The position numbers and the translations under genes were made by a program. Below the pieces are notes generated by a model, which did not search any database, had not been told where the DNA came from, and saw only the letters and a list, made by a program, of their open reading frames with translations. 64,000 nt of DNA from a virus: IMG/VR virus record IMGVR_UViG_3300035703_000062, positions 10,338 through 74,337 of that record; one strand, 5' to 3'. Below are positions 3,615 to 43,115 of the stretch, in pieces (the stretch's first letter is position 1; each line of letters opens with the position of its first letter).

Positions 3615-3667
3615 GATGCTGGCCCCGTTCCGTGCCAGCGCGTCATGCGCCCCTTGCGGGGTGAACG
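3615..3667 (-). promoter_or_regulatory. Glutamine-II riboswitch (Downstream-peptide RNA motif)
   Basis: CGUUCACCCCGCAAGGGGCGCAUGACGCGCUGGCACGGAACGGGGCCAGC: P1 CGUUC/GAACG, P2 CCCC-GCAA-GGGG, short P3, pseudoknot GCUGGC/GCCAGC just 5' of the RBS. Confidence 0.9.
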
Positions 3668-3674
3668 TACCTTC

Positions 3675-4577: not shown

Positions 4578-5942
4578 TCACAAGAAATTTTCTAGCCAAT
4601 TGGACTCATCGTCTTTATTAGCTGCATGAATTGCCGCGGCCAGGGCGAAAGCATGGTCGTCAATACCAGTTTGTTTGCCGCCAGTGACACTCCATTGTCC
4701 TCCTGCTTTGTATACAACAGTGAGCCCTTTAATTTCACTAATAGCCTTCTCGTGATTGTAAATGTTCACTTGTCCTGCGTTGAACAGTTCACGCATCTTT
4801 GAGAATGCTTTTGTTTTAGAAGAAATGGTCCAAGTGAGTTCTTCAATGGGGTAGTCGCCAGTGAGGGCCTGGATTGTGCCCGCACTGTTGTACTGGTCCA
4901 TCACAATCTTTTCAAACACATAGAGCTTATGTTGCTCCCTTATCCAATCTTCAACGGCGTTAATGTTAACTTCCTTCCTGCCGTTAATTTCAAAATCCGC
5001 CACGAACGTGTGGAACTTGTCCACAACTAATATTCCATTGTCAAAGTGAACAATACAGGCGGTGTAATTATCTCTTCCAATGCCGCCACGGGCAGGGTCA
5101 AGCGATAGCACGTAGGAGCCAACGAAGCGCTCCTCTGGGGGGAGCGCTTTGCGTTTGTCATCAATGCAGGCCTCAACCACATCGGGGGAGATGAGGGCTG
5201 AAAGGTTGGCGGAGAACTGCGCTCCGTATTCAACGTTGAACTTATCGGGATCGCGCTGGCGCTCCAGTTCCAGGAAATCGCGAGAGATGGTTGGGTTCAT
5301 CTCCCACGTTGGGAGGTTGACCGCTTGTAGGTGTGGAAAGCGACCGGAGGCTGCCTCCTTGAAATGTTGGTAGAAGAGACCGTCAGTCAGCCATGGTGAA
5401 GACAGCTCAAGGATTTTGCCGTCGCTGCCGAACTGTGCCACTGCAGGAGAGAGTGCCTGATAGATGCCGTTGGCGCCAGAGTTTGCGTCGCCGTCCACGG
5501 CGAACGCAAGCTCGTCGAACACACAGGCGCAGCAGGCAAGACCACGAGCAGCACGACCCGATGTAGGAATAGCCTTGAACACACATCCATTGCTCATCTC
5601 AATTTGATCAGCGGTTTCGCGGGAGATTTCCTGCGCGAATGGGCTATCAAGAATGAGCTGGCGAATGTTATTAAGAGCAATGCGGCTCTGGTCCTGACTG
5701 TTTGCAACAGTAAGCACGTACCACTTCTCTCCTTTCCGTACTTTTGCTTTGTACTTGTCTTCTAGGACAAAGCAGATGTAGACGCACGCAACGGCGGCCA
5801 TGAGCGTTTTGCCGCTACGGCGGCCCAACGCCCACGTCGCCTGTGAAAACCCCCCTTCAAAGAACGAATCGAGGATTTCAGCCTGTTTGGGATAGAGGGC
5901 TAATCGAAGGGCGTGCTTTGCGAAGTCTGAACATCTAAGCAT
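4578..5942 (-). CDS. terL: Terminase large subunit
   Basis: YPKQ Q-motif, Walker A GRRSGKT, Walker B VFDE, LSSP coupling motif, RNase H-like SLDPA..D..DDHAFALA. Confidence 0.95.
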   Translation of the reverse strand: MLRCSDFAKHALRLALYPKQAEILDSFFEGGFSQATWALGRRSGKTLMAAVACVYICFVLEDKYKAKVRKGEKWYVLTVANSQDQSRIALNNIRQLILDSPFAQEISRETADQIEMSNGCVFKAIPTSGRAARGLACCACVFDELAFAVDGDANSGANGIYQALSPAVAQFGSDGKILELSSPWLTDGLFYQHFKEAASGRFPHLQAVNLPTWEMNPTISRDFLELERQRDPDKFNVEYGAQFSANLSALISPDVVEACIDDKRKALPPEERFVGSYVLSLDPARGGIGRDNYTACIVHFDNGILVVDKFHTFVADFEINGRKEVNINAVEDWIREQHKLYVFEKIVMDQYNSAGTIQALTGDYPIEELTWTISSKTKAFSKMRELFNAGQVNIYNHEKAISEIKGLTVVYKAGGQWSVTGGKQTGIDDHAFALAAAIHAANKDDESNWLENFL

Positions 5943-6430
5943 TGTTTCAGCTCCTCCATGGAGCGAAGATTGTCTTTAGGAACGAAATAACACGGGCGCC
6001 CCGGCACATGCTCTTTCTTCCATTGTTTTTGCTTGGCTTGATGGGCATGTAGCCAACCATGGAGCCTAATTTCCTGGTTTTGTATCGTAACCAATACCAG
6101 GGTCTTGTCTTCACTTTCATCGAGAAGGCAGATTAGATCATAGTAATGGCGTGAACGTGTTTTCACATCAATATTGAAGGGCAGGTCGCAGCTTCCTCTG
6201 GTGGCTTCTGTTTCTTGAAATACGAAATCTTTTAGGCCAAGAAAGCTCGCCACTGCCATTTCGCCACCGGCACCAAGGATGTGCATGCGGAGGGCGTCGT
6301 CGCCCAAGGCTGGGCCGTTATTTCGGCCCAGCTTCCCTTGTTTTGCGTTGGTTTCTTGCCGGCGTTCGCCTTCGGCTATGGCCAACGCCTTCTCTGAAGG
6401 GGACAACTGCCACACAATGTGTTGGGGCAT
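5900..6430 (-). CDS. Hypothetical protein, possible PD-(D/E)XK nuclease fold
   Basis: GAGGEMAVASFLG..D..IDVKTR pattern; overlaps terL start. Confidence 0.55.
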   Translation of the reverse strand: MPQHIVWQLSPSEKALAIAEGERRQETNAKQGKLGRNNGPALGDDALRMHILGAGGEMAVASFLGLKDFVFQETEATRGSCDLPFNIDVKTRSRHYYDLICLLDESEDKTLVLVTIQNQEIRLHGWLHAHQAKQKQWKKEHVPGRPCYFVPKDNLRSMEELKQCLDVQTSQSTPFD

Positions 6431-6501
6431 GTTGAGGAATGTTTCAGTACACGACAATGTACCCAGTTCTAGAATGATTGCAATATCAGGATTCCTTATG
6501 C

Positions 6502-8604
6502 ATGGCTGACGTTACACAAGGTGGGGATATGGTGTCGCTCGGGCATGCCACAGCGGGTGGTATTCGCGCCGATGGCCTGCAAAATGTGTTCACCGGGATG
6601 GGCACGAGCCGTGATAAGACCACCCGCACCACTGTTAAGCCGGTGTCTTTCATGGGCCATGAAGACCTTGAAGGTCTTTATGCACATTGGCTCATGCGGC
6701 GCATTGTTGACCTCGTGGCGGACGAATGCACCCGCGAGGGCTTTGAGATTTTGTTTGGCGGGGAGGGCGTCAATGCTGAAACGCTTTCTGGCGTTGAACA
6801 GGCCATTGAAGACCTGGAAATTCTGTCCTTCTTCAACGAGGCGGCCAAAACTTCTCGCTTATATGGCGGCAGCGCGTTGCTGCTCTACATCGACGATGGG
6901 CGTCCGTCCGATATGCCCGTTGACAAGAATAATATTCGCGCTGTGGAGGGTATGGACTGCCTGGATCGGCATCAGATTGCGCCGATCATTAGTGAAGAAA
7001 GTCTGTACGACTATTCCAAGGCAACTTACTACCAAATCATTTCTGGCGATCTAATTCAGCAGCCCAACCTCCGTGCCATCCATAAGGACAGAATTCTGCG
7101 GTTTGACGGCATTTGGCTGCCGTATCGCACGCGGCAGAAGAACTATGGCTGGGGCATGAGCGTGCTGCAGAGCGTCTATGACAGCTTCAAGCACTACTAC
7201 AGCGGCACCGCATCCATTGCCACCCTTCTTACTGAGTTTGACATCTTTGTGCATAAGGTGAGGGGCTTGGCTTCCATGCTGGCCGCTGGCAAGGAAGGGC
7301 AGGTAAGAGATCGCCTGCAACTGAATGACATGAGCAAGAGCATCTATCGCGGCTACGCGATTGATGCGGAGAAGGAAGAGCTGGCCTTTGTTAGCCGGCA
7401 GTTTGGCGGCGTGAGCGAAATCCTGGAGAAGCTGCGCATCGATGTGATTGCCGCTGCTGGCATTCCCCATACATTGCTATTTGGCCAGTCACCGTCTGGC
7501 TTGGGCGCTACGGGCCGTAGTGAAGAGCGTGACTTTGCCAAGACTTGCCATCACTACCAAGAAACTAATTTCCGAAAGCCTCTGACAAAGCTGATGGAAT
7601 ACATCATGCTGAGTAAGACTGGCCCCACTGGCGGAAAAGTGCCTGATAACTGGCGCGTGAGCTTCAAGCCTCTGTTTGAAATGAACGAGCGTGAGCTGGC
7701 TGACGTGCGTGCGCGGGTGGCTGCGGTGGATGCTCGTTACATCCAGGTGGGTGTGCTTACGCCGCAGGAAGTGGCAGATTCGCGGTTCGGAAAGAGCGAA
7801 TACAGCATTGAAACCACCATTGATCCATCGATCAAGCGGGAAATGCCGCAGAAGCCTGGCGACGGCAAGATGGCCGTTCCTCCGGGTGGTCGCGATCCGC
7901 TGGATCAGCAGAACGGCAGCCTGCCTATGGATGGATCTCGCGAGGCTTCGGAAAGCGCAGCGGAAGAGACGATGGATGAAGCGGGCCTCTACATGTCTCG
8001 CGATCTAGAGAAGGTGCGTGGCGACGTGACATTCACCGACAAAACCCTGCATTCACGAGCCGTTAGCGCTGCCAAATCGAAGTTCAAGGTGTGGCCTTCT
8101 GCCTACGCCAGTGGTTATGTCGTGCAGAAATACAAGCAAATGTACAAGGAGAAGCATGGCTCTCTGAGCGGCGCCTTCAAAGGCGACGGCGAAGAGCTTC
8201 ATGCCGACGACCTTGATAAGTGGTTTAAGGAGAAGTGGGTGAGGATTGGGGCTAATGGCGAAATCATGGGGCCTTGTGGAGCCCGTGAGAAGGGCGAAGG
8301 CAAGCCGAAATGCTTGCCCCAGGCAAAAGCACAAGGGATGTCGAAGGAAGAGCGGCAGCGCATTGTTGCCCGCAAACGTAAGGCCGATCCCAATCCTGAG
8401 CGTCGCGGTCCGGCCAAGATGGTGAGCAGTAAAACTGATGCCATTGAACCGCTCAAAGCGGAAGGCCTCATCCTGGGTGACATTGACGAAGCCGCGCTGA
8501 TCACGCAGGCTGATATTGACGCAGCTTTGAACCAGTGGAAGCAGGAAGCTCCTGAGCGCTTCAAGGACATTCTGGAGGCCGGCAATGTTGAGCCCACTGA
8601 GTGA
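6502..8604 (+). CDS. Portal protein (DUF1073/HI1409 family) with long C-terminal extension
   Basis: DGLQNVFTGMG, RRIVD, SRLYGG, HKDRILRFDG, WGMSVLQ, IPHTLLFGQSPSGLGATG, FKPL; about 250 extra residues after the portal core. Confidence 0.9.
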   Translation: MADVTQGGDMVSLGHATAGGIRADGLQNVFTGMGTSRDKTTRTTVKPVSFMGHEDLEGLYAHWLMRRIVDLVADECTREGFEILFGGEGVNAETLSGVEQAIEDLEILSFFNEAAKTSRLYGGSALLLYIDDGRPSDMPVDKNNIRAVEGMDCLDRHQIAPIISEESLYDYSKATYYQIISGDLIQQPNLRAIHKDRILRFDGIWLPYRTRQKNYGWGMSVLQSVYDSFKHYYSGTASIATLLTEFDIFVHKVRGLASMLAAGKEGQVRDRLQLNDMSKSIYRGYAIDAEKEELAFVSRQFGGVSEILEKLRIDVIAAAGIPHTLLFGQSPSGLGATGRSEERDFAKTCHHYQETNFRKPLTKLMEYIMLSKTGPTGGKVPDNWRVSFKPLFEMNERELADVRARVAAVDARYIQVGVLTPQEVADSRFGKSEYSIETTIDPSIKREMPQKPGDGKMAVPPGGRDPLDQQNGSLPMDGSREASESAAEETMDEAGLYMSRDLEKVRGDVTFTDKTLHSRAVSAAKSKFKVWPSAYASGYVVQKYKQMYKEKHGSLSGAFKGDGEELHADDLDKWFKEKWVRIGANGEIMGPCGAREKGEGKPKCLPQAKAQGMSKEERQRIVARKRKADPNPERRGPAKMVSSKTDAIEPLKAEGLILGDIDEAALITQADIDAALNQWKQEAPERFKDILEAGNVEPTE

Positions 8605-19621: not shown

Positions 19622-22600
19622 ATGGCGGCGGAACTCCGGCTTGGCGTATCGTTTGATCTTGTATATTTCCGCCAGCAGCTTCAAAAGCTTGGCCGAATTG
19701 CCGCGTCGGAATTTACTGCGCCTATCAAGATCAAGCTTGATCGGCAGGTTGTTGACCGAGAGCTGAATAATTTACAAAAGTCGATAAAAAGACGTAAATA
19801 CAATATTGAGCTAAACATTGCCGGTAATTTAAGCAAAAAAAGCTTTGACGAGCTTCAAGAGCGTTTAGACACTCTTAGTCAGCGTAAAAAAATCGAGGTG
19901 CCTGTCAGCATTAAAAATGCTGCCACCGGCAAAGAAATCTCCGATGCTATTGCGGCGCTGCGATCACGCATTACTCAAAATCAGTCGGTCAAGCAAGGCG
20001 GAGGGAAGCTGCGCATTGGTGTCAGCATTCAGGCATCCATTTCAAATGACGATATTGCAAAATTTAAGAATGCAGTCAAAGAAAAATTTGCCGGGATAAC
20101 CAATAAGGCTGATGTATCTATCGGTGTTAAAAATGCCGCTAGCGGGAAGGATGTCGCGGATACCATCGCTGGGATTAGGAGCCGAATAAATCAGAATCAA
20201 GGAGTCAAGCAAGGTGGAGGCAAGCTCCGCGTTGGACTTAGTATCAAGCCTGCAATCACGAATGCAGACATTGCTGGATTCAAGAGGACTGTAGAGGAGA
20301 AATTCTCGGGACTTAGCGTCAAAATCAAGGCAGACGTACAAGCCGGTTTTGCATCAGGACCGACTGGCGCCGCTGGTTTGTATGAATACATGCGGAACGA
20401 AGGGCTTTCGGGGGGCAACGTGCCCGGAGCCGCACAGGCTGGTCGTCGCGCTCAATTTGAAGCTCGCGTAGCGCAAGCCAATACCGAGCAATTGCAGAGC
20501 ATGTTGCGGCGAGCAGATGTTCCTGGCAGGAGCGGACTTCGCACGAAAGCTGCAATGCAGGAGCGTTTGCGGCAGTTAGATGATGCCGCGATGGAAGGCC
20601 TTCTCGGCAACCTTGAGATGAGAATGCGTGAGCCTAGGAAGGTCGAGCGCTCGTTTTTGGACAAGGTGGCACGAGCCGTCTTCTGGATGGCTGGTGTTGA
20701 TCCCGAATATTTGCGTCAACAAGCAGCACAACGACGAGCGCTACCAAATGTTAGCTTTCCTGCGACTGTCCCACCTGGCCCTTCCATTGGCCCCTCTTCC
20801 ACAGGAAGAGCACTGCCCCCTGGGGCGATCCCTGGCGCACTTCCTGGATCAGCATTTGCACGTCAGCGCTTTCTCCCTCCGCAGATAGGACAAGACCTCA
20901 ACAATATCTTGCGCAATGCAGCGTTTGCGTTTGTTGACTCGCTGAATTCTCGCATTCGTCAAGTGAGCGTGAGGGAGGTCGGCAGGCAGGCTCTCCCCCC
21001 ATCGATGATTCGCGGGCTATTGCCGGCAGGTGTAGGTAGAGAGCCTTCCATCTATGGTGGACCGGCAGAGACTGATCGCACATCCTTCTTGCAGCGTCGC
21101 ATTGATGAAGCGTTGGCAAGATCGGCAGAACGCGGCGCCGCCATCATGGCCAACGAGCCCAGGAAAGGCGTGCTTGGTGCTGGCGGCAGTGGTACCGCTG
21201 GTCCTTACAGGCCCTTTGCTCAGCCTCCCAGGGGAGGGGCGATTGTCCCATATCAGCCCCAGCCATCTCGGCCTTCTGCCGCCTCGCCGATTGACTTTTC
21301 CTTCTTTCAGCAATCAAAGCTGCCATTAACTGGTGCCATTAGGGAGCTAGGCGATGAATTTGGTACTGCAGTTAAACAGGTTTTGCTATTTGGCACAGCT
21401 TACAAAGCATTAGCTTTTGTCACAAGTCTGCCCAGCGAAGCGTTAAATGCAGCGACAGCGCTTCAAACGTTTAGGAACCAGCTTGAAGCCGTTACAGGAG
21501 GAACCGCGCAGGCCGAGCAAGCGTTTGCTTTTGTTAGCGATGTTGTATCGCAACTAAATATCCCTCTGGAAAGCGCACGCGCCGGTTTTATTCGGATGTA
21601 TGCCTCGATGGAGCCAGCAGGGATCGCAAAGGGTGACATTGAAAATCTGTTTGTGGGCATCTCCAAGGCTGCTGCCACCTTTGGCATGAGCACCGACGAG
21701 GTGAATCGCGTGACGAATGCCTTTGCTCAAATGGCAAGCAAGGGGCAATTGTCGGCAGAAGAGGTGAAGAACCAGCTTGGCGACGTGATGCCTGGCGCTT
21801 TGTCTTTGTTCGCAAGGGCCGCGCAGATGGACATCGGAACGTTCTTGAAGGCCATGGAAGATGGCGCATTCAAGGCGGATGCGATGGGGCAGGTGCTTCG
21901 CAACGTAGGTAAGTTACTGAACACCGAATACGGGGGCGCTGCTACCAACGCTGCCAACACATTGCAGGGGGCACTGAATGGCCTGACAACGGCGGTGAAG
22001 CTGATGTACGAAAGCTTTGAGCCGCTTGTCAGTGTTGTCGCTTCCACTCTTTTCCCTCAAATTGAAACGGTTGTTATCGATGCGGCGGAAGCGGTAAAGG
22101 CTTTTGCTGCCGGAATGCAAGGAGCGGCTAATCCGACGGCAGAGCTTAGCTCTAATGGCCTTGCCATGTACAATGCACTGGGGCAGGTTGTTGAAATTGC
22201 GAAATCTTTAGAAGGCATTATCACTGGAGAACTGGGCACTGCGCTAGTAAGACTTGGCGGGCTGTTTTTAACAGTAACTGAATATATTGCCCGCTTGTTT
22301 AATACTGGCCTTGGTCAATGGTTGACGCGAATTGCCATTGAAGTGGGCTTGCTAACAGCGGCGTGGGGCTTGCTTAGCGCATCTGGAATTATTCCTGCAA
22401 CAGTGGCGTTGCTGCGTTTTGTTGCGACTCTGAACATCGCGCAACTTCGCGTGTACATTGCAGGCATCATGTCAATGGTGAGTGCATTCCTTAGCCTGAT
22501 CAATACAACAAACCTTGCAAAGGTTGCAGTGCTTGGCTTTAAGACTGTTGTATTAGGGGCGGTTGGTGCCGGCGTGTTGTTTGCTATTGATGCACTGGTT

Positions 22601-24376
22601 CAGCGGTTCATGAATGTCGGTAGCGCCATTCGTGACGTGGCGGCAGAAGCCAGAAGGGCAAAAGTAGATCTGGACTCTCTTGCCGCCGCCGGCCAGATTG
22701 CTGAAATCCAAGGCAAAAAACAGCTTGTTGAGCCACAGCTACAGTCCATTGAAAAAGCGCAAAGCATTCTTCAGAGGATGCAACAAGCTCGCGGTCAAGG
22801 ACAAGCGCTGCAAATATCCCAGCAGGAATTTGAGACACTTCAAAGAACCGGGCTTGCATCGGGGGTTGATTACAGAGGTGGAGTTGCAAGAGCTGGCCGC
22901 GGTCAAATTGAGGCCAATCTTGAAGCGGCGCGTCGTGGTCGGGTTTCTCTTCTTAATCAACTTGGCGACTTAGACGAAGCCGAGCAGGAAGCATCGCGGC
23001 AAGCGATTATGGCAAGCGAGCGAAATCAAAGGCTTGAAAAAATAACTCTTGCCCCTGGAAAAGAGAAAAAAGATAAAAAACAAAGCATGTCTGATTTAAT
23101 TGGAGGAGATATCGAAAGGTGGCTTGATGAAAGCCTTGCGGCGTTGGAACAGAATATACAAACGCAACTTACTAACGTTGTCCGTGGAACAGACCTCACA
23201 GGAAAAATCAAGTACGGCGAAAACACGGAAGATGCCGAGCGTATGATCAAATACGCCGGCCAATATCAAGAGGTGAGCCTTAAGGTGCTGGCTATTGATG
23301 AAACAATCAAGAAAGTCAGGGAGCAAGCTTCTGCTTTAGTCGCAAATGGCATCGACCCGGCAGAAAAGCTTGCAGCTCTTGAGTCAAAGAGACGAAATCT
23401 TGCATGGGAAGCTGCGACTATCTTCCAAAAGCATTCTGCCGATGCCATTGTGGCCGCAAAGAAAAGGGATGAGGAGCTTGAAAAAGAAAAGCAAAAACGC
23501 ATGCAAATTGTTGAGCTTATCGAAGAGGCTGAAGTTGCTGCGGGCCTGCTCAGTCCCTTGGAAGCCGCTCGCCGCAAGCAGCAAAGGGGATTTGAGACGA
23601 ACTTGGCAGAGGCCAAAAAGAATGGAACGCCAGAGCAAGTAGCGCGGCTAGAGGCGCTACAGGCAGCCACTCCAGTGGTCGGAAGCCTTGGTGAGGCCTA
23701 TCAAAAGGCAAAGAATGAGCTTGATTTACTCCTGGATGGGACGACCGTAATTACTAGCGCTGCACAAGGGTTTGGCGATGCGTTTAGCAAGGCATTCACT
23801 GACATCATTACAGGCGCACAAAGTTGGAAAGAAGGGCTTGGCAATGCGTTCAAAAGCGTTGCCAATATGTTTGCTGACATGGTTGCTCAAATGCTTGCCA
23901 AATGGGCTTTCATGCAAATCGTTGGTATGTTCTTGCCTGGTGCAGGTTCTTTTGCTGGTGGAACGAAGCTTGGCGGATCGGTAGCAATGCCTTCAAGTGT
24001 GGGCATAGGCGCTGGCGGCGGCATCCTTCAGAACACTGGAGGTCAAGGATTTGGTACATTTGGTCCGAACTTTGGCATTCGTCAATTTGCAACCGGAGGC
24101 CTTGTAACTGGTCCCACCCTGGGTCTTGTGGGCGAAGGGCGCTTTAATGAGGCTGTGGTGCCGCTGCCTAACGGCAAGAGCATTCCCGTGGATCTTGGCC
24201 AGGGTGCTGGCAATAACATTTCTACTAACATTGTTGTCAATATGAACAATGGCCAATCGAACAGTCAGATGAGCGGACGCGGTGGTCAAGCACTGGGTCG
24301 CGAACTTGAAGGCGCTGTTCGTAATGTCATCCTGAAAGAAACCCGCCCAGGCGGCCTCATCTACAGCGCACGCTAA
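19622..24376 (+). CDS. Tape measure protein
   Basis: 1584 aa; AFAQMASKGQLSAEEVKNQLGD tape-measure domain; C-terminal FATGG.V.GPT..GEG..EAVVPL and E.RPGGL. Confidence 0.95.
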   Translation: MAAELRLGVSFDLVYFRQQLQKLGRIAASEFTAPIKIKLDRQVVDRELNNLQKSIKRRKYNIELNIAGNLSKKSFDELQERLDTLSQRKKIEVPVSIKNAATGKEISDAIAALRSRITQNQSVKQGGGKLRIGVSIQASISNDDIAKFKNAVKEKFAGITNKADVSIGVKNAASGKDVADTIAGIRSRINQNQGVKQGGGKLRVGLSIKPAITNADIAGFKRTVEEKFSGLSVKIKADVQAGFASGPTGAAGLYEYMRNEGLSGGNVPGAAQAGRRAQFEARVAQANTEQLQSMLRRADVPGRSGLRTKAAMQERLRQLDDAAMEGLLGNLEMRMREPRKVERSFLDKVARAVFWMAGVDPEYLRQQAAQRRALPNVSFPATVPPGPSIGPSSTGRALPPGAIPGALPGSAFARQRFLPPQIGQDLNNILRNAAFAFVDSLNSRIRQVSVREVGRQALPPSMIRGLLPAGVGREPSIYGGPAETDRTSFLQRRIDEALARSAERGAAIMANEPRKGVLGAGGSGTAGPYRPFAQPPRGGAIVPYQPQPSRPSAASPIDFSFFQQSKLPLTGAIRELGDEFGTAVKQVLLFGTAYKALAFVTSLPSEALNAATALQTFRNQLEAVTGGTAQAEQAFAFVSDVVSQLNIPLESARAGFIRMYASMEPAGIAKGDIENLFVGISKAAATFGMSTDEVNRVTNAFAQMASKGQLSAEEVKNQLGDVMPGALSLFARAAQMDIGTFLKAMEDGAFKADAMGQVLRNVGKLLNTEYGGAATNAANTLQGALNGLTTAVKLMYESFEPLVSVVASTLFPQIETVVIDAAEAVKAFAAGMQGAANPTAELSSNGLAMYNALGQVVEIAKSLEGIITGELGTALVRLGGLFLTVTEYIARLFNTGLGQWLTRIAIEVGLLTAAWGLLSASGIIPATVALLRFVATLNIAQLRVYIAGIMSMVSAFLSLINTTNLAKVAVLGFKTVVLGAVGAGVLFAIDALVQRFMNVGSAIRDVAAEARRAKVDLDSLAAAGQIAEIQGKKQLVEPQLQSIEKAQSILQRMQQARGQGQALQISQQEFETLQRTGLASGVDYRGGVARAGRGQIEANLEAARRGRVSLLNQLGDLDEAEQEASRQAIMASERNQRLEKITLAPGKEKKDKKQSMSDLIGGDIERWLDESLAALEQNIQTQLTNVVRGTDLTGKIKYGENTEDAERMIKYAGQYQEVSLKVLAIDETIKKVREQASALVANGIDPAEKLAALESKRRNLAWEAATIFQKHSADAIVAAKKRDEELEKEKQKRMQIVELIEEAEVAAGLLSPLEAARRKQQRGFETNLAEAKKNGTPEQVARLEALQAATPVVGSLGEAYQKAKNELDLLLDGTTVITSAAQGFGDAFSKAFTDIITGAQSWKEGLGNAFKSVANMFADMVAQMLAKWAFMQIVGMFLPGAGSFAGGTKLGGSVAMPSSVGIGAGGGILQNTGGQGFGTFGPNFGIRQFATGGLVTGPTLGLVGEGRFNEAVVPLPNGKSIPVDLGQGAGNNISTNIVVNMNNGQSNSQMSGRGGQALGRELEGAVRNVILKETRPGGLIYSAR

Positions 24377-38565: not shown

Positions 38566-40542
38566 ATGGCTCGCAACACCTTGGCCCCTGGTGGATATAT
38601 TGGTGGCGAGCCGCCGAGGCGGCCATATTTAAATCAGCTTAGTGGCGTATGGAAGCTGGAAGACGCAGTGGAGCGTCAGAAGGCTGGTACGTGGACCAAC
38701 CCGCTAGGCATTGAAGACCTGTTTTCCACCTATCTTTACACAGGCAACGGCAGCACGCAGACGATCACGAATGGGATTGATCTGGCAGGTAAGGGTGGGT
38801 TGGTTTGGATTAAAAGCCGAAGCACAGTAACTGACAACGCTCTTTTTGACACTGCGCGAGGAGCATCTAATGGGTTTCTGCGTTCAAACACCACAGACAC
38901 GCCTTATGCAAACCCAAGCAGTGACCTGACCAGTTTTGACGCGTCCGGTTTCTCGATCACTAATAGCACAGGAAATGTCAACGTAAGCCCTCGCACCTAC
39001 GCCTCCTGGACCTTCCGCAAGGCCGCGAAGTTCTTTGATGTAGTGACGTGGACGGGGGATGGTGCATCTTCTCGCAACATCTCTCACGCTCTTGGTTCTA
39101 CGCCCGGCTTCATCGTTGTTAAACGAACAAGCGCATCCTCAGACTGGTGGTGTTGGCATAGGTCCATATCAACTGGTGATCTTTCTGGCAACAACTTGAT
39201 TGTATTAAACACAACAGCAGCCCAAACTAATATTGGCACAGTAATCGGAACGGCATCTTCCACGTCGTTCCAAGTTGGTGGTGATAGCTCTGTCAACGCC
39301 TCTGGCGCCACCTACGTCGCCTACCTATTCGCGCACGACGCTGGCGGGTTTGGCGATAGCGGCAATGACAGCGTGGTGAGTTGCGGTACATTTACAGGTG
39401 ATTCCACTGTTACTCTTGGTTGGGAGCCGCAGTGGCTTCTTTTTAAGCGTACTGATTCAACGGGTAACTGGAGAATTCTTGATAATATGAGGGGGATGCC
39501 AGTAATTGCAAGTTCTACTGGTAGTCAACAAGTTCTTTTTCCCAATACATCAGGAGCAGAATCAACTGATGGCGTAGCCAGTCCGACGCCAACAGGTTTT
39601 CAGGCGTTTTTAGGTGCTGGCACCTACATCTACATCGCCATCCGCCGTGGGCCGATGAAGACGCCTACGGATGCGACGAAGGTGTTTTCTCCTTACATTG
39701 CAGCAGGCAATACGGCTACTGGCTTTGTTACTGATTTGCAGTTTGCCTTAGAACGAGCCGGTAGCGCCAATAATGCCCAGACGTATGATCGTCTTCGCGG
39801 TGGCAAAACCTTAAGAACAAGCAGCACGGGTGCTGAGTTTAACTTCGATGTAGGTTTTGCGACAAATGACGGCACGACATATTCATGGACATCCGGTTAT
39901 CTACGGTATTCTTTCCGCCGCGCCCCCGGCTTCTTCGACGTGGTGGCTTATACGGGCACGGGCAGCGATCAGACTATCACTCATAATCTCGGCGTTACGC
40001 CGGAGCTAATAATTGTAAAATGCAGAAGCGCAGTCGATGATTGGTATGTTTATAGTCAGAGTTTGCCAACCGCTACGCAGAACTGGGTAAGGCTTAGTAC
40101 TAACGCTTCTGCAAATGGCGCTATTGGACAAGATCTTTGGGGGCCGCCAACTTCGACAACGTTCAAGGTGGATACTTATTTAGCACTGTCCACTTCTGCT
40201 GGCACCTACATCGCCTACCTCTTCGCCTCCTGCCCCGGGGTCAGCAAGGTCGGCAGCTATACCGGCACTGGCACCACGCTGAGCATCGACTGCGGCTTCA
40301 CAGCAGGCGCACGGTTCGTTCTGATCAAGCGCACTGACAGCACCGGTGACTGGTACGTCTGGGACACCGCTCGCGGCATCATCAGTGGTAACGATCCATC
40401 ACTTTTATTGAACTCTACTGCTGCGGAAGTGACGAACACTGACTACATCGACCCGCTGAATGCTGGCTTCCAAATTAGCTCTACTGCCCCTGCCGCCATC
40501 AATGCAAACGGCGGAAGCTTCATCTTTTTTGCAGTGGCTTAG
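38566..40542 (+). CDS. Receptor-binding/adhesin-like protein with repeated beta domains
   Basis: Repeats of Y/WTG.G...I.H.LG..P..IIVK.....W..Y(V/I)AYLFA; N-terminal GGYIG..SGVW anchor. Confidence 0.75.
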   Translation: MARNTLAPGGYIGGEPPRRPYLNQLSGVWKLEDAVERQKAGTWTNPLGIEDLFSTYLYTGNGSTQTITNGIDLAGKGGLVWIKSRSTVTDNALFDTARGASNGFLRSNTTDTPYANPSSDLTSFDASGFSITNSTGNVNVSPRTYASWTFRKAAKFFDVVTWTGDGASSRNISHALGSTPGFIVVKRTSASSDWWCWHRSISTGDLSGNNLIVLNTTAAQTNIGTVIGTASSTSFQVGGDSSVNASGATYVAYLFAHDAGGFGDSGNDSVVSCGTFTGDSTVTLGWEPQWLLFKRTDSTGNWRILDNMRGMPVIASSTGSQQVLFPNTSGAESTDGVASPTPTGFQAFLGAGTYIYIAIRRGPMKTPTDATKVFSPYIAAGNTATGFVTDLQFALERAGSANNAQTYDRLRGGKTLRTSSTGAEFNFDVGFATNDGTTYSWTSGYLRYSFRRAPGFFDVVAYTGTGSDQTITHNLGVTPELIIVKCRSAVDDWYVYSQSLPTATQNWVRLSTNASANGAIGQDLWGPPTSTTFKVDTYLALSTSAGTYIAYLFASCPGVSKVGSYTGTGTTLSIDCGFTAGARFVLIKRTDSTGDWYVWDTARGIISGNDPSLLLNSTAAEVTNTDYIDPLNAGFQISSTAPAAINANGGSFIFFAVA

Positions 40543-40588
40543 AGCTAGTCCTTTCCATTGCTACCATTAGTTTACTGACGATTTAACC

Positions 40589-41341
40589 ATGGGACAAGGC
40601 GGATACATCGGCGCAAGCCCTGCTTGGCAAGGAGGACCTACTAATCCCTATCCCTATCTGCCTGGTGCATGGCAAATTCAGGAAGCGTATCGCAGAGGGC
40701 GCAGTGGCACTTGGACTCGGGCAGGTATTCCAGTGATTGGTGAGCCTTATCAAGGCGGCTTTTTTGCTGGATTTATTAGTCATACTGCTGACGGCAACGC
40801 CACGCACGCATTAATTGTGGCGCCACGTGCCACCGGGGGCATGGGTGGCTCTTATCCGCGTGACTCGCGGTGGAAGACCAGTCAAACCACGACAGTTGGC
40901 ACTACAAGCCCGTTTGATGGCGCCGCAAATACCGCTGCAATAGTTACTGCTGGGATTGCCGCTCATCCCGCTGCTCAATTTTGCGTCAGCCTTAGCATTG
41001 GCGGATATACAGATTGGTATCTTCCCTCGCGGTATGAGCTTGATATTGCCTATCAAAACTTAAAGCCAACAACCTACAATAACGACACATCTTGGGGCGT
41101 CAACCCTTATTCAGTGCCAGCGCGTACAGTCAATCGCACCACTGGAACCCCCTTGAGAACGTCAGTAGCCGCCTTTCAAGATGGCGGAACAGAATCCTTT
41201 GTTACGAGCTACCACTGGTCATCCACTGAGGGCAGCGCCGCGAATGCGTGGACAGTGTACTTCATTGATGGCTCCCATCTAAGTACTACCAAGACCGACA
41301 CCACATGGTACGTTCGTGCCTTCCGCAAAGTAGCGCTTTAA
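40589..41341 (+). CDS. DUF1566/Lcl C-type-lectin-fold adhesin, DGR target-type protein
   Basis: IGEPYQGGFFAG, GGYTDWYLPSRYEL, C-terminal WSSTE..NAW.V.F..G......K......VRAFR variable-region pattern. Confidence 0.85.
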   Translation: MGQGGYIGASPAWQGGPTNPYPYLPGAWQIQEAYRRGRSGTWTRAGIPVIGEPYQGGFFAGFISHTADGNATHALIVAPRATGGMGGSYPRDSRWKTSQTTTVGTTSPFDGAANTAAIVTAGIAAHPAAQFCVSLSIGGYTDWYLPSRYELDIAYQNLKPTTYNNDTSWGVNPYSVPARTVNRTTGTPLRTSVAAFQDGGTESFVTSYHWSSTEGSAANAWTVYFIDGSHLSTTKTDTTWYVRAFRKVAL

Positions 41342-41403
41342 TACTTTCGTTCTTTAGACAGCAAGCGAGCATGCCCTAAACTAAGACTTTCTCGCTTTTT
41401 TCT

Positions 41404-41460
41404 TTGGCTAAATACAAGCATCTGCCAATATACAAATCAACCTATGACCTTGGTGAATAG
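41404..41460 (+). pseudogene. avd: 5' remnant of DGR accessory variability determinant (Avd four-helix bundle)
   Basis: TTG-MAKYKHLPIYKSTYDL then premature TAG; matches the Avd N-terminal (Y)xxLP(I/V)YKxxYDL pattern. Confidence 0.7.
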
Positions 41461-41578
41461 CTATTTAGGATTTTTGCGGCACATGAACAGCTATGGCGCC
41501 AGAGAAAAGATATGCAGAAGGTTTTCTTGGCTAGGCTATGAATCAAATGCAGAAATGACAAAAATTATTTCGCTTTAG
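41453..41578 (+). pseudogene. 3' remnant of DGR reverse transcriptase (thumb region)
   Basis: VNSYLGFLRHMNSYGAREKI..* matches the RT C-terminal NSYLGxxxHxNSYxxR motif; no catalytic YxDD part present. Confidence 0.7.
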
Positions 41579-41589
41579 GAGGGTAAGAA

Positions 41590-41730
41590 ATGGCAGCAAA
41601 AAGCAAAGTAGGGCTGTCTGGTGGCAGGCGCTTGATTATTGGCAAGCCCAAGCGCACCCGACAGGGAGAGGGCAAAAACAGCAAGCCTTCTCATGGTCGC
41701 AAGCCATCACGAGGGCAGGGCAAGAGCTGA
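41590..41730 (+). CDS. Small basic protein (46 aa; KPK.TRQG.G..SK..RGQG cyanophage-type)
   Basis: AGGAGG RBS; MAAKSKVGLSGGRRLIIGKPKRTRQGEGKNSKPSHGRKPSRGQGKS (below ORF-track cutoff). Confidence 0.75.
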   Translation: MAAKSKVGLSGGRRLIIGKPKRTRQGEGKNSKPSHGRKPSRGQGKS

Positions 41731-41758
41731 TTATCATTAAGAAAAGCCTTGATACACC

Positions 41759-42100
41759 GTGATTGATCCCGCTAAATACGACATCACTATTCATCAGGGT
41801 GCCACATTTGAGCTGAATTTACAGCTTAAAGATGGCAATGGCAGTCCAGTGGCAATGTCAGGCTACACAGTGGCTGGCAAAGTGTACGACAGATATGGCG
41901 CCACATTATTGGCCACGTTTGTCCAAGAATGGACCACCCAAGCAAGCGGCTTGTTCAAACTTTCCATTCCAGCATCAGGCACTGCCACTTTGAGTGGCAG
42001 CGCCCAATATGACGTGCTAGTTACAGAGCCCACTGGTCGAAAATACTACCTCCTTGAAGGGGCTGCCATTATCAATCCAGGCCTTACAGGGAGGGCGTGA
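41759..42100 (+). CDS. BppU N-terminal-like fibre adaptor
   Basis: YDITIHQGATF..YDVLV....YLLEG...PG.T. Confidence 0.7.
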   Translation: MIDPAKYDITIHQGATFELNLQLKDGNGSPVAMSGYTVAGKVYDRYGATLLATFVQEWTTQASGLFKLSIPASGTATLSGSAQYDVLVTEPTGRKYYLLEGAAIINPGLTGRA

Positions 42101-42375
42101 TGGAAGTTGTTATTAGTGGAGCATCATCTCCGCAGGTGCAAATTGTAGAGAGTGGTAATACTGTCGTCGTCACTCGTCCAATAATTTCTACTGTTTCGCT
42201 GACTATGGCTGGCCCTCAGGGGCCAGCCTTCACAGGACAGCAACTATTTAACATTGGAGCAATTGAGCAGCTTACTGTAGCAAATAGCGGCTCCACGCTA
42301 CAGTGGAATGGCACGCAATATGTGCCAGCCTCAGAACTTGGCACAAACTTAACGATTAACGGGGGAGCGTTTTAA
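42097..42375 (+). CDS. Short fibre-associated protein
   Basis: GPQGP, L.WNG, INGGAF ending. Confidence 0.65.
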   Translation: MMEVVISGASSPQVQIVESGNTVVVTRPIISTVSLTMAGPQGPAFTGQQLFNIGAIEQLTVANSGSTLQWNGTQYVPASELGTNLTINGGAF

Positions 42376-43115
42376 TGAGCGGCAGCATTATTAAACTGAA
42401 AAGGCGAGCTGCAACTGGAGCAACTGGCGCCCCTGCTTCTCTAAAGAGTGGCGAACTTGCCTTTAACGAAAACGTTTCCGACAAGAGCCTGTACTATGGC
42501 TATGGCGATGATGGCAGCGGCAATGCCACGTCGATCATTTCCATTGGTGGCGAAGGTGCCTTTGCTACTCTAAGCACCAACCAAACGCTCACTGGCAATA
42601 AAACTTTTACTGGCACAGTCACGCTTACAGGCGCCACTGTTGCATTGAATACAAGCCAGCTCACTGAGAGCGGCAGCTTGTTCTTTACAAACGCTCGCGC
42701 TCGTGCTGCTCTTTCTGGGAGCAGCACTGTTTCGTTTGATCAAAATACAGGCATTATTAGCCTGCCAAATGATCTCACCATTGCAAGCGGCCTTACCGTA
42801 GGCGGCGACCTCGCTGTTAATGGCACACTGACAACAATTAACAGTACCACTGTTACTGTTGACGACAAGAATATTGAGCTTGGCTCCACTGCATCGCCCA
42901 CGGATGAAACTGCCGATGGTGGTGGTATCACGCTCAAAGGCGCCACTGACAAAGAAATTAAGTGGTTGAATGCCACTGACTCTTGGACTTTTAATCAAAA
43001 TGTCAACATTTCATCTGGCGGCCTCAGAATTGGCGGCACTGAAGTGATTAGTTCTGCTCGCGTGTTGAGCAATGTGACGGTTAGCGGCGTCACCATCGAT
43101 GGAGGAGAATACTAA
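42375..43115 (+). CDS. Tail fibre protein
   Basis: IKLKR..P..L..GELA.N N-terminus; NSTTVTVDDKNIELG, ADGGGITLKGATDK; IDGGEY ending. Confidence 0.8.
   Translation: MSGSIIKLKRRAATGATGAPASLKSGELAFNENVSDKSLYYGYGDDGSGNATSIISIGGEGAFATLSTNQTLTGNKTFTGTVTLTGATVALNTSQLTESGSLFFTNARARAALSGSSTVSFDQNTGIISLPNDLTIASGLTVGGDLAVNGTLTTINSTTVTVDDKNIELGSTASPTDETADGGGITLKGATDKEIKWLNATDSWTFNQNVNISSGGLRIGGTEVISSARVLSNVTVSGVTIDGGEY

Follow-up and report, generated by a model that had tools for sequence, protein, structure and literature searches.

The DNA analysed here, referred to as the window, is a stretch of 64,000 nt corresponding to bases 10338-74337 of a virus record of 74,337 bp. With its 93-bp direct terminal repeat and a completeness of 100, the record is rated complete. 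Its gene order is that of a siphovirus: a tape-measure gene (19622..24376) is followed by minor tail genes, a J-like central fibre gene and then several fibre genes. The closest named backbone is that of Synechococcus phage S-CBS4 (NC_016766), whose J-like central tail-fibre protein shares 77.7% identity with that of the window along the entire length, and the window's phage is an S-CBS4-like Synechococcus siphophage, i.e., a cyanophage. Among the fibre genes we found a target gene of a diversity-generating retroelement (DGR) followed by fragments of the other DGR genes. The locus consists of the following features, all on the plus strand, with the basis of each assignment in brackets.

40589..41341, +, DGR target gene encoding a tail-fibre tip protein of 250 aa (ORF list, Pfam, PHROG, homologues)
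41196..41330, +, putative former variable region (VR), now presumably fixed (aligns with the VR of the related locus L004, 5702-5833, and with the L004 template repeat, TR)
about 41311-41330, +, 3' end of the VR, resembling an IMH (initiation of mutagenic homing) site, CGTTCGTGCCTTCCGCAAAG (end of the TR/VR homology in relatives)
41342..41403, +, spacer of 62 nt from the target stop codon to the avd start (sequence; comparison of downstream regions)
41404..41451, +, avd stump, TTG start and 15 codons, AKYKHLPIYKSTYDL (HMM, L004 alignment)
41451..41452, +, putative deletion junction (nucleotide and protein alignments to L004; spanned by one Logan contig)
41453..41578, +, RT stump, last 41 codons and TAG, VNSYLGFLRHMNSYGAREKICRRFSWLGYESNAEMTKIISL (HMM; comparison with L004 and the RT protein P0001)
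41577..41730, +, AGGAGG ribosome-binding site and an ORF of 46 aa, basic (41590..41730) (sequence; ORF list)

The fibre gene preceding the target (38566..40542) is of the DUF7483 type. At 40200-40350, which encodes part of its C-terminus, many contigs of the same study with summed depths up to ~4,600 carry many differences and break off. The segment seems to be common to many phages that occur together, and recombination boundaries are likely to fall in it.

The tip gene and its variable region

The target gene belongs to the tail-fibre module, which follows the tape-measure and J-like genes. Its product was assigned to PHROG 4245 and matches the Pfam family Lcl_C (PF07603) with 36.2 bits, above the gathering score of 34.9 used as cut-off. 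PF07603 is the former DUF1566. The protein has 2,095 homologues at E ≤ 1e-30, and its C-terminus, ...FVTSYHWSSTEGSAANAWTVYFIDGSHLSTTKTDTTWYVRAFRKVAL, is of the VR type. A previous reading of the window, made from the sequence only, had described a DUF1566-type gene ending in a typical variable region, and both the quoted peptide and the domain were recovered in this ORF.

Over its N-terminal ~43 aa the target is similar to the start of the fibre protein encoded just before it (41% identity, E 7e-9), and therefore it looks like a small tip protein docking on the fibre. From this similarity the shared part is probably a common docking peptide. The common module of ~43 residues, GGYIG...W.(L/I)(E/Q)(D/E)A...GTWT, is encoded at 38566-38700 and at 40589-40720. 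The remainder of the target corresponds to the Lcl_C/DUF1566 domain by sequence match (the structure prediction has a mean pLDDT of 33.8). Searching PDB sequences with a profile of the target family gave 8q4e_A ('HbP1', 165 aa) as the sole match (C-terminal 45 residues, E 2.7e-7); it covers window positions 41190-41330, that is, target residues 197-242, the VR segment. A distant-DNA search of GenBank phage records with the locus gave no match. The target has no tblastn match in S-CBS4 either. Consequently, the window's phage has acquired the fibre-tip module, together with the DGR scar, as a mosaic addition to its backbone.

The search with the target protein led to 73 viral and 79 metagenome loci. 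Among 41 full-length homologues, all 17 alignment columns with an entropy of at least 2.5 bits fall in residues 207-240, and the mean entropy outside the VR residues is 0.59 bits. At the level of codons, too, the pattern fits a VR. Compared with the residues encoded by the L004 TR, the window has the same residue at 14/24 non-AAY codons and at only 1/13 AAY codons (p = 0.004). The sequence-only reading had pointed out that many variable codons end in C or T. Opposite the AAY codons of the L004 TR the window has 13 codons, and this applies to 12 of them, against 126/203 (62%) in the rest of the gene, although the effect is weak (p = 0.035).

At the nucleotide level the window VR differs from the L004 and L079 TRs at 19 of 44 adenine sites and at 23 of 88 other sites. 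This excess is weak (p = 0.07), too weak to demonstrate an adenine signature of the window VR itself. Even with the best-fitting TR, 26% of the non-adenine sites differ. The segment is identified as a VR by homology and by the variability pattern, not by direct comparison with its own TR, which is lost. We infer that it was formerly written by the lost cassette.

Stumps of avd and RT and the missing part of the cassette

HMMs for Avd (119 positions) and RT (358 positions) were made from intact relatives and applied to the window, translated into 46,366 six-frame pieces. Each HMM gave a single match in the 64 kb. The Avd HMM matched with its positions 1-16 (21.3 bits, iE 5e-4) and the RT HMM with its positions 315-357 (30.3 bits, iE 8e-7). 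Both matches are on the correct strand, in the correct order and directly behind the target. Hence fragments of Avd and RT follow each other in cassette order right behind a VR-bearing target, as is expected of a DGR remnant.

The avd stump begins with TTG at 41404, 62 nt after the stop codon of the target, where the sequence-only reading had placed an Avd start about 60 bp past the gene. In its first 15 residues 13 are the same as in L004 Avd, and including the start context the DNA is 84% identical to L004 over 50 nt. After 41451 its frame continues with Gly-Glu and then a stop codon (41458-41460). From 41453 the sequence encodes the RT peptide in another frame, which ends with TAG at 41576-41578 and is 64% identical to the C-terminus of L004 RT. 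The break into RT-like sequence noted at about 41452 thus lies at 41451|41452. The statement that neither fragment appears among the listed open reading frames had to be corrected: the RT stump is contained in a mechanically called ORF of 44 aa (41444..41578). The AGGAGG motif that serves the next ORF (41590) as ribosome-binding site overlaps the stop codon of the RT stump.

The spacer is ~40 nt longer than in L004-type relatives. As RNA, spacer and stumps have no significant fold (z = 0.55). Promoter- and terminator-like sites in this part occur at the frequency expected from shuffled sequence, and the locus gave no match in Rfam.

The best RT match of the stump was found in a database search. 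P0001, an intact DGR-type RT of 371 aa with an RVT_1 domain and a YVDD motif, is encoded on a Logan assembly contig of 3,117 nt, and its C-terminus is identical to the stump at 37 of 41 positions (90%, E 3e-25). Both fragments therefore match Avd and RT profiles or proteins, the comparison that had been proposed for them. The RTs nearest to P0001 are 70% identical in viral contigs (IMG/VR) and 28-37% in prokaryote genomes. P0001 probably marks the closest living cassette, and the closest TR would probably be on its contig.

For the layout of a complete cassette we relied on the related loci. In L004 (the same as L005) the target (5185..5844) is followed by Avd (5867..6232), the TR (6351-6482) and RT (6403..7596). 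This TR has its counterpart in the VR at 5702-5833; the two differ at 25 positions, every one of them a TR adenine. L004 Avd matches Pfam bAvd with 47 bits and has NCBIfam DivGenRetAVD as its best family; L004 RT matches RVT_1. The same order of target, avd, TR and RT, which the sequence-only reading had taken as the DGR order, is present in L004/L005, L079, L135, L025, L071, L060, L011 and L023. The TR/VR mismatches located at TR adenines amount to 25/25, 17/18, 19/19, 14/17, 15/15, 14/18, 17/17 and 5/5, respectively. L028 has the signature as well (20/21), with its RT cut by the contig end. Because the mismatches are adenine-specific, these reference cassettes are DGRs.

The window can be aligned to L004 until position 5914 and again from position 7474, and nothing remains between the stumps. 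Therefore the window lacks about 1,558 bp, which comprise all of avd after codon 16, the TR, and the part of the RT that precedes about profile positions 314-320 of 358. The proposed comparison with sister genomes carrying the full cassette was successful as far as intact relatives with adenine mismatches are concerned, but none of the relatives retrieved has a cassette close enough for testing the window VR against its own TR. The L004 and L079 targets are 64-65% identical to that of the window and the nearest relatives' targets 65-69%. Via the downstream LtfC-like gene 38 loci were retrieved; none has Avd or RT, and the closest one, L154, is rearranged.

The missing parts are not located elsewhere. 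In the window and in the whole genome of 74,337 bp there is no second copy of the VR and no TR, the best non-self match being 42 nt with 69% identity. RVT_1 has no match in the whole genome and the catalytic core of the RT is absent. Three [YF]xDD words occur in the six frames of the genome, all in unrelated frames. For bAvd there is no match in the genome, and only 16 of the 119 Avd profile positions are left before the stop codon. The earlier observation that the window shows neither a TR nor a YxDD core can thus be extended to the complete genome. Of the parts of a functional DGR, i.e., an RT with a YxDD core, a TR homologous to the VR and the accessory protein Avd, none is present in functional form.

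Cassette loss in related phages

The homologous loci amount to 129 distinct ones. The cassette is intact in nine of them and in two more that are cut by the contig end; in 93 the HMMs found no trace of it over at least 300 nt of downstream sequence. The following relatives carry scars or have lost the cassette completely (coordinates of the respective contigs).

L078, 2827-3050, scar: Avd 1-43 and the last ~19 RT codons; microhomology of 2 nt relative to L004
L077, 934-1030, scar: ~11 Avd codons and ~4 RT codons; microhomology of 5 nt
L066, 460-645, scar: two deletions, leaving Avd 1-19, the RT tail and, between them, a short stretch from the middle of Avd
L153, 4460-4810, scar: internal RT deletion, profile positions 64-307 missing and the RT core gone
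L080, 4699-4715, complete loss: blunt, the next gene directly after the target

The junctions of the four scarred relatives (L078, L077, L066, L153) are all different, with microhomologies of 0-5 nt. In L066 the remnants form one in-frame ORF of 52 aa. In L153 Avd and the TR are intact, and all 17 VR mismatches are at adenines. Across the lineages the RT stump varies from 0 to ~150 nt in length, which argues against the stumps having a function. From the avd start onward, the cassette has given way to unrelated DNA in L147 and in the group of L003, L083, L088 and L099. Judged from these loci, DGR loss is recurrent among the related phages, with at least four apparently independent internal-deletion scars in addition to clean losses or replacements.

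A weakly supported FastTree phylogeny of 125 target domains shows the DGR-bearing rows scattered, with 10 changes for 11 rows. In this tree the DGRs cluster no better than shuffled labels, and it gives no usable count of losses versus gains.

Replaced loci share a conserved noncoding stretch that contains GTGAGCACG...CTTCTAACCCCGTGGAAATCGACGGGTTTGC and is found at L003:6618-6790 and just after the target stop in L083, L088, L099 and L076. It follows the avd start codon, contains an extra insert of ~75 nt in L088 and L099, and has no match in Rfam.

Several relatives without a cassette have VRs that can be compared with the TR of L079. The L092 VR differs from it at 21/43 adenine sites and 0/88 other sites, the L003 VR at 19/43 and 1/88. 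Many of the cassette-less loci nearest to L079 have VRs of this pattern, differing almost only at adenines, and these were clearly written by such a cassette. L088 and L092, which come from two samples, were aligned over L088 1-2929. They show 20 differences, all inside the VR (L088:2599-2672), and no mismatch in ~920 nt upstream and ~257 nt downstream of it. With the exception of at most one site, each of the two VRs differs from the L079 TR at adenines. Apparently the VR of this pair went on changing once the cassette had gone. The change may be due to a helper phage, to patch recombination, or to a cassette in another part of these genomes, which are incomplete. The 27-kb contig of L003 contains no RT; this contig is only 34% of a genome, so the missing RT says little.

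Origin of the scar and present state of the tip gene

The reading that we hold to be very probably correct is that a canonical DGR cassette was lost by a single illegitimate-recombination deletion of ~1.5 kb, which left the tip gene fixed and the stumps as non-functional leftovers. The stumps are homologous to Avd and RT and syntenic with intact cassettes, the missing parts are lacking in a complete genome, and the junction is present in a second assembly. The ancestor phage would have carried a DGR of the order target(VR)-avd-TR-RT behind the tail-fibre tip gene. The deletion would have joined avd codon 16 to the last 41 RT codons and taken out the remaining avd codons, the TR and the whole catalytic core. 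By analogy with the microhomologies of 0-5 nt at the relatives' junctions, illegitimate recombination, either blunt or by short homology, may have removed the cassette. The sequence-only reading had proposed that one deletion took most of avd, the TR and most of RT. The extent agrees with the step from 5914 to 7474 in L004; that it was one event and not several is the most parsimonious assumption. A viable deletion would have to spare the 3' end of the target on one side and, on the other, the ribosome-binding site that overlaps the RT stop codon and serves the next gene. With bounds on both sides, small stumps of variable length would remain, and probably the stumps survive merely for this reason. 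As the genome is complete and contains neither a TR nor a further RT or Avd, the gene for the receptor-binding tip would now be an ordinary, fixed one. It may have become fixed because one specificity was favoured or because the cost of the cassette was not repaid.

It could be objected that the junction is an assembly artefact, i.e., a collapse or chimera of an intact DGR, since VR/TR repeats may mislead assemblers and the check was made with contig-level data from a sample that is the probable source. This sample, the subsurface metagenome run X1, has Logan contigs made by another assembler and thus provides an independent assembly of the same data. A single X1 contig of 3,060 nt with a depth of 261 spans 40563-42600 without any difference, gap, joint or VR variant, at the level of contigs, which hide rare variants and minor alternative junctions. 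It passes through the junction, so that the suspected collapse was not found. No alternative joint was seen among the loose ends listed. Moreover, the junction is situated in avd and the 3' end of RT, outside the VR/TR repeat, no repeat flanks it, and similar scars occur in independent samples. An artefact is therefore hardly conceivable. A different history would be that the stumps were joined by mosaic recombination between phages, in which case the lineage may never have had a working DGR. The tail-fibre region is indeed mosaic, with the backbone relative S-CBS4 lacking a target homologue, the genes downstream of the scar are unlike those of the L004 group, the replacement of the module begins exactly at the avd start in the L003 group and L147, and the contigs of many phages break at 40200-40350. 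But such an origin requires two breakpoints inside one cassette of 1.7 kb with the same end product, so the single deletion is simpler. The close pairs L078/L004 and L077/L004 show plain internal deletions at the locus, and the window VR has the DGR-type variability of its family. We consider the mosaic origin very unlikely.

A third alternative accepts the scar as real and concerns the present state of the tip gene: the target could still be diversified in trans, as the sequence-only reading had suggested, by a DGR that has a matching TR and belongs to the host or to a co-infecting relative. According to Wu et al. (PMC5758913), DGR parts can serve remote targets in trans. Among the relatives, the cassette-less VRs that differ from the L079 TR almost only at adenines, and the pair L088/L092 with the same post-loss junction, identical flanks and 20 differences inside the VR, point in this direction, and the window retains a conserved, IMH-like 3' end of the VR. 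On the other hand, the complete genome has neither TR nor RT, and the contig with depth 261 passes unbroken through the VR. A second contig of at least 85% likeness to the VR or the stumps was not found in the three runs of the study; the two other runs, X2 and X3, contain almost none of the stretch. Furthermore, no known TR fits the window VR, as seen from the non-adenine differences mentioned above. For the window's phage the suggestion thus found no support, and we give it a slim chance. Somewhat broader is the idea that orphan VRs like that of the window stay substrates for DGRs acting in trans from co-infecting relatives, at which L088/L092 hint; we regard this as improbable, with a small chance of being correct. 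If true, the retroelement would be a shared good of the phage community: genomes could shed the 1.5-kb cassette and still have their tip rewritten.

Compared with known systems, the window locus with its presumed single deletion is a decayed member of a known family, as both the DGR architecture and targets of the DUF1566 type are well described (PMC5758913). The DGR of Bordetella phage BPP-1 (mtd-avd-TR-brt, architecture B1; Wu et al. 2018, PMC5758913) has the same layout as L004, L079 and the inferred ancestor. Like BPP-1, L004 and L079 have a DGR behind a phage tail-fibre gene and adenine-specific differences between TR and VR. In contrast to BPP-1, the window retains 16 avd codons and 41 RT codons and has no TR and no catalytic RT, and its target domain is of the Lcl_C/DUF1566 type and not of the Mtd type. 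DUF1566 is one of the motifs defining DGR target category 'd', about half of which are short proteins consisting of that domain only (Wu et al., PMC5758913). As in DUF1566/CLec2 targets of this category such as LdtA of Legionella, the VR occupies the C-terminal ~45 residues of the domain. The category 'd' protein LdtA is a bacterial surface lipoprotein, whereas the window target is the tip protein of a phage fibre, begins with a probable docking peptide and has lost its cognate TR.

Inactivated DGRs have been described before. Schillinger et al. (2012, PMC3521204) reported RTs cut by IS insertion, nonsense mutation or frameshift, and also, close to distal targets, a second RT that is mutated. 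The orphan all3226 as well as the degraded cassette of Anabaena sp. 90 were reported by Vallota-Eastman et al. (2020, PMC7517822). Removal of components after a good variant has arisen was already proposed in these studies (PMC3521204, PMC7517822). In those cases as in the window, the diversification machine is lost and the diversified gene intact. Unlike them, the window shows a junction-resolved deletion fusing the 5' part of avd to the 3' part of RT in a complete virus genome, with parallels in sister lineages. Our limited literature search found neither a junction-resolved avd/RT deletion scar in a phage nor a recurrent series of such scars.

The locus would thus represent a clean natural switch-off of a DGR, in which the receptor-binding gene is left whole and avd, TR and RT are gone in one cut. 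This fits the idea of 'diversify, then freeze' proposed for cyanobacterial targets. The interest of the locus comes mainly from the comparative series, and the wider family may matter more than the single case: a large group of mostly freshwater phage fibre tips that mixes intact cassettes, scars, losses or replacements, and cassette-less VRs with a pure adenine signature. Here the rate and mode of DGR loss and diversification in trans are measurable from metagenomes. DGR surveys anchored on the RT will overlook such formerly diversified genes.

Apart from the DGR locus, the window contains at 3618-3670 on the minus strand a Glutamine-II riboswitch aptamer (RF01704), which scored 42.2 bits against a gathering score of 33. 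The Glutamine-II class is found in cyanobacteria and would suit a cyanophage.
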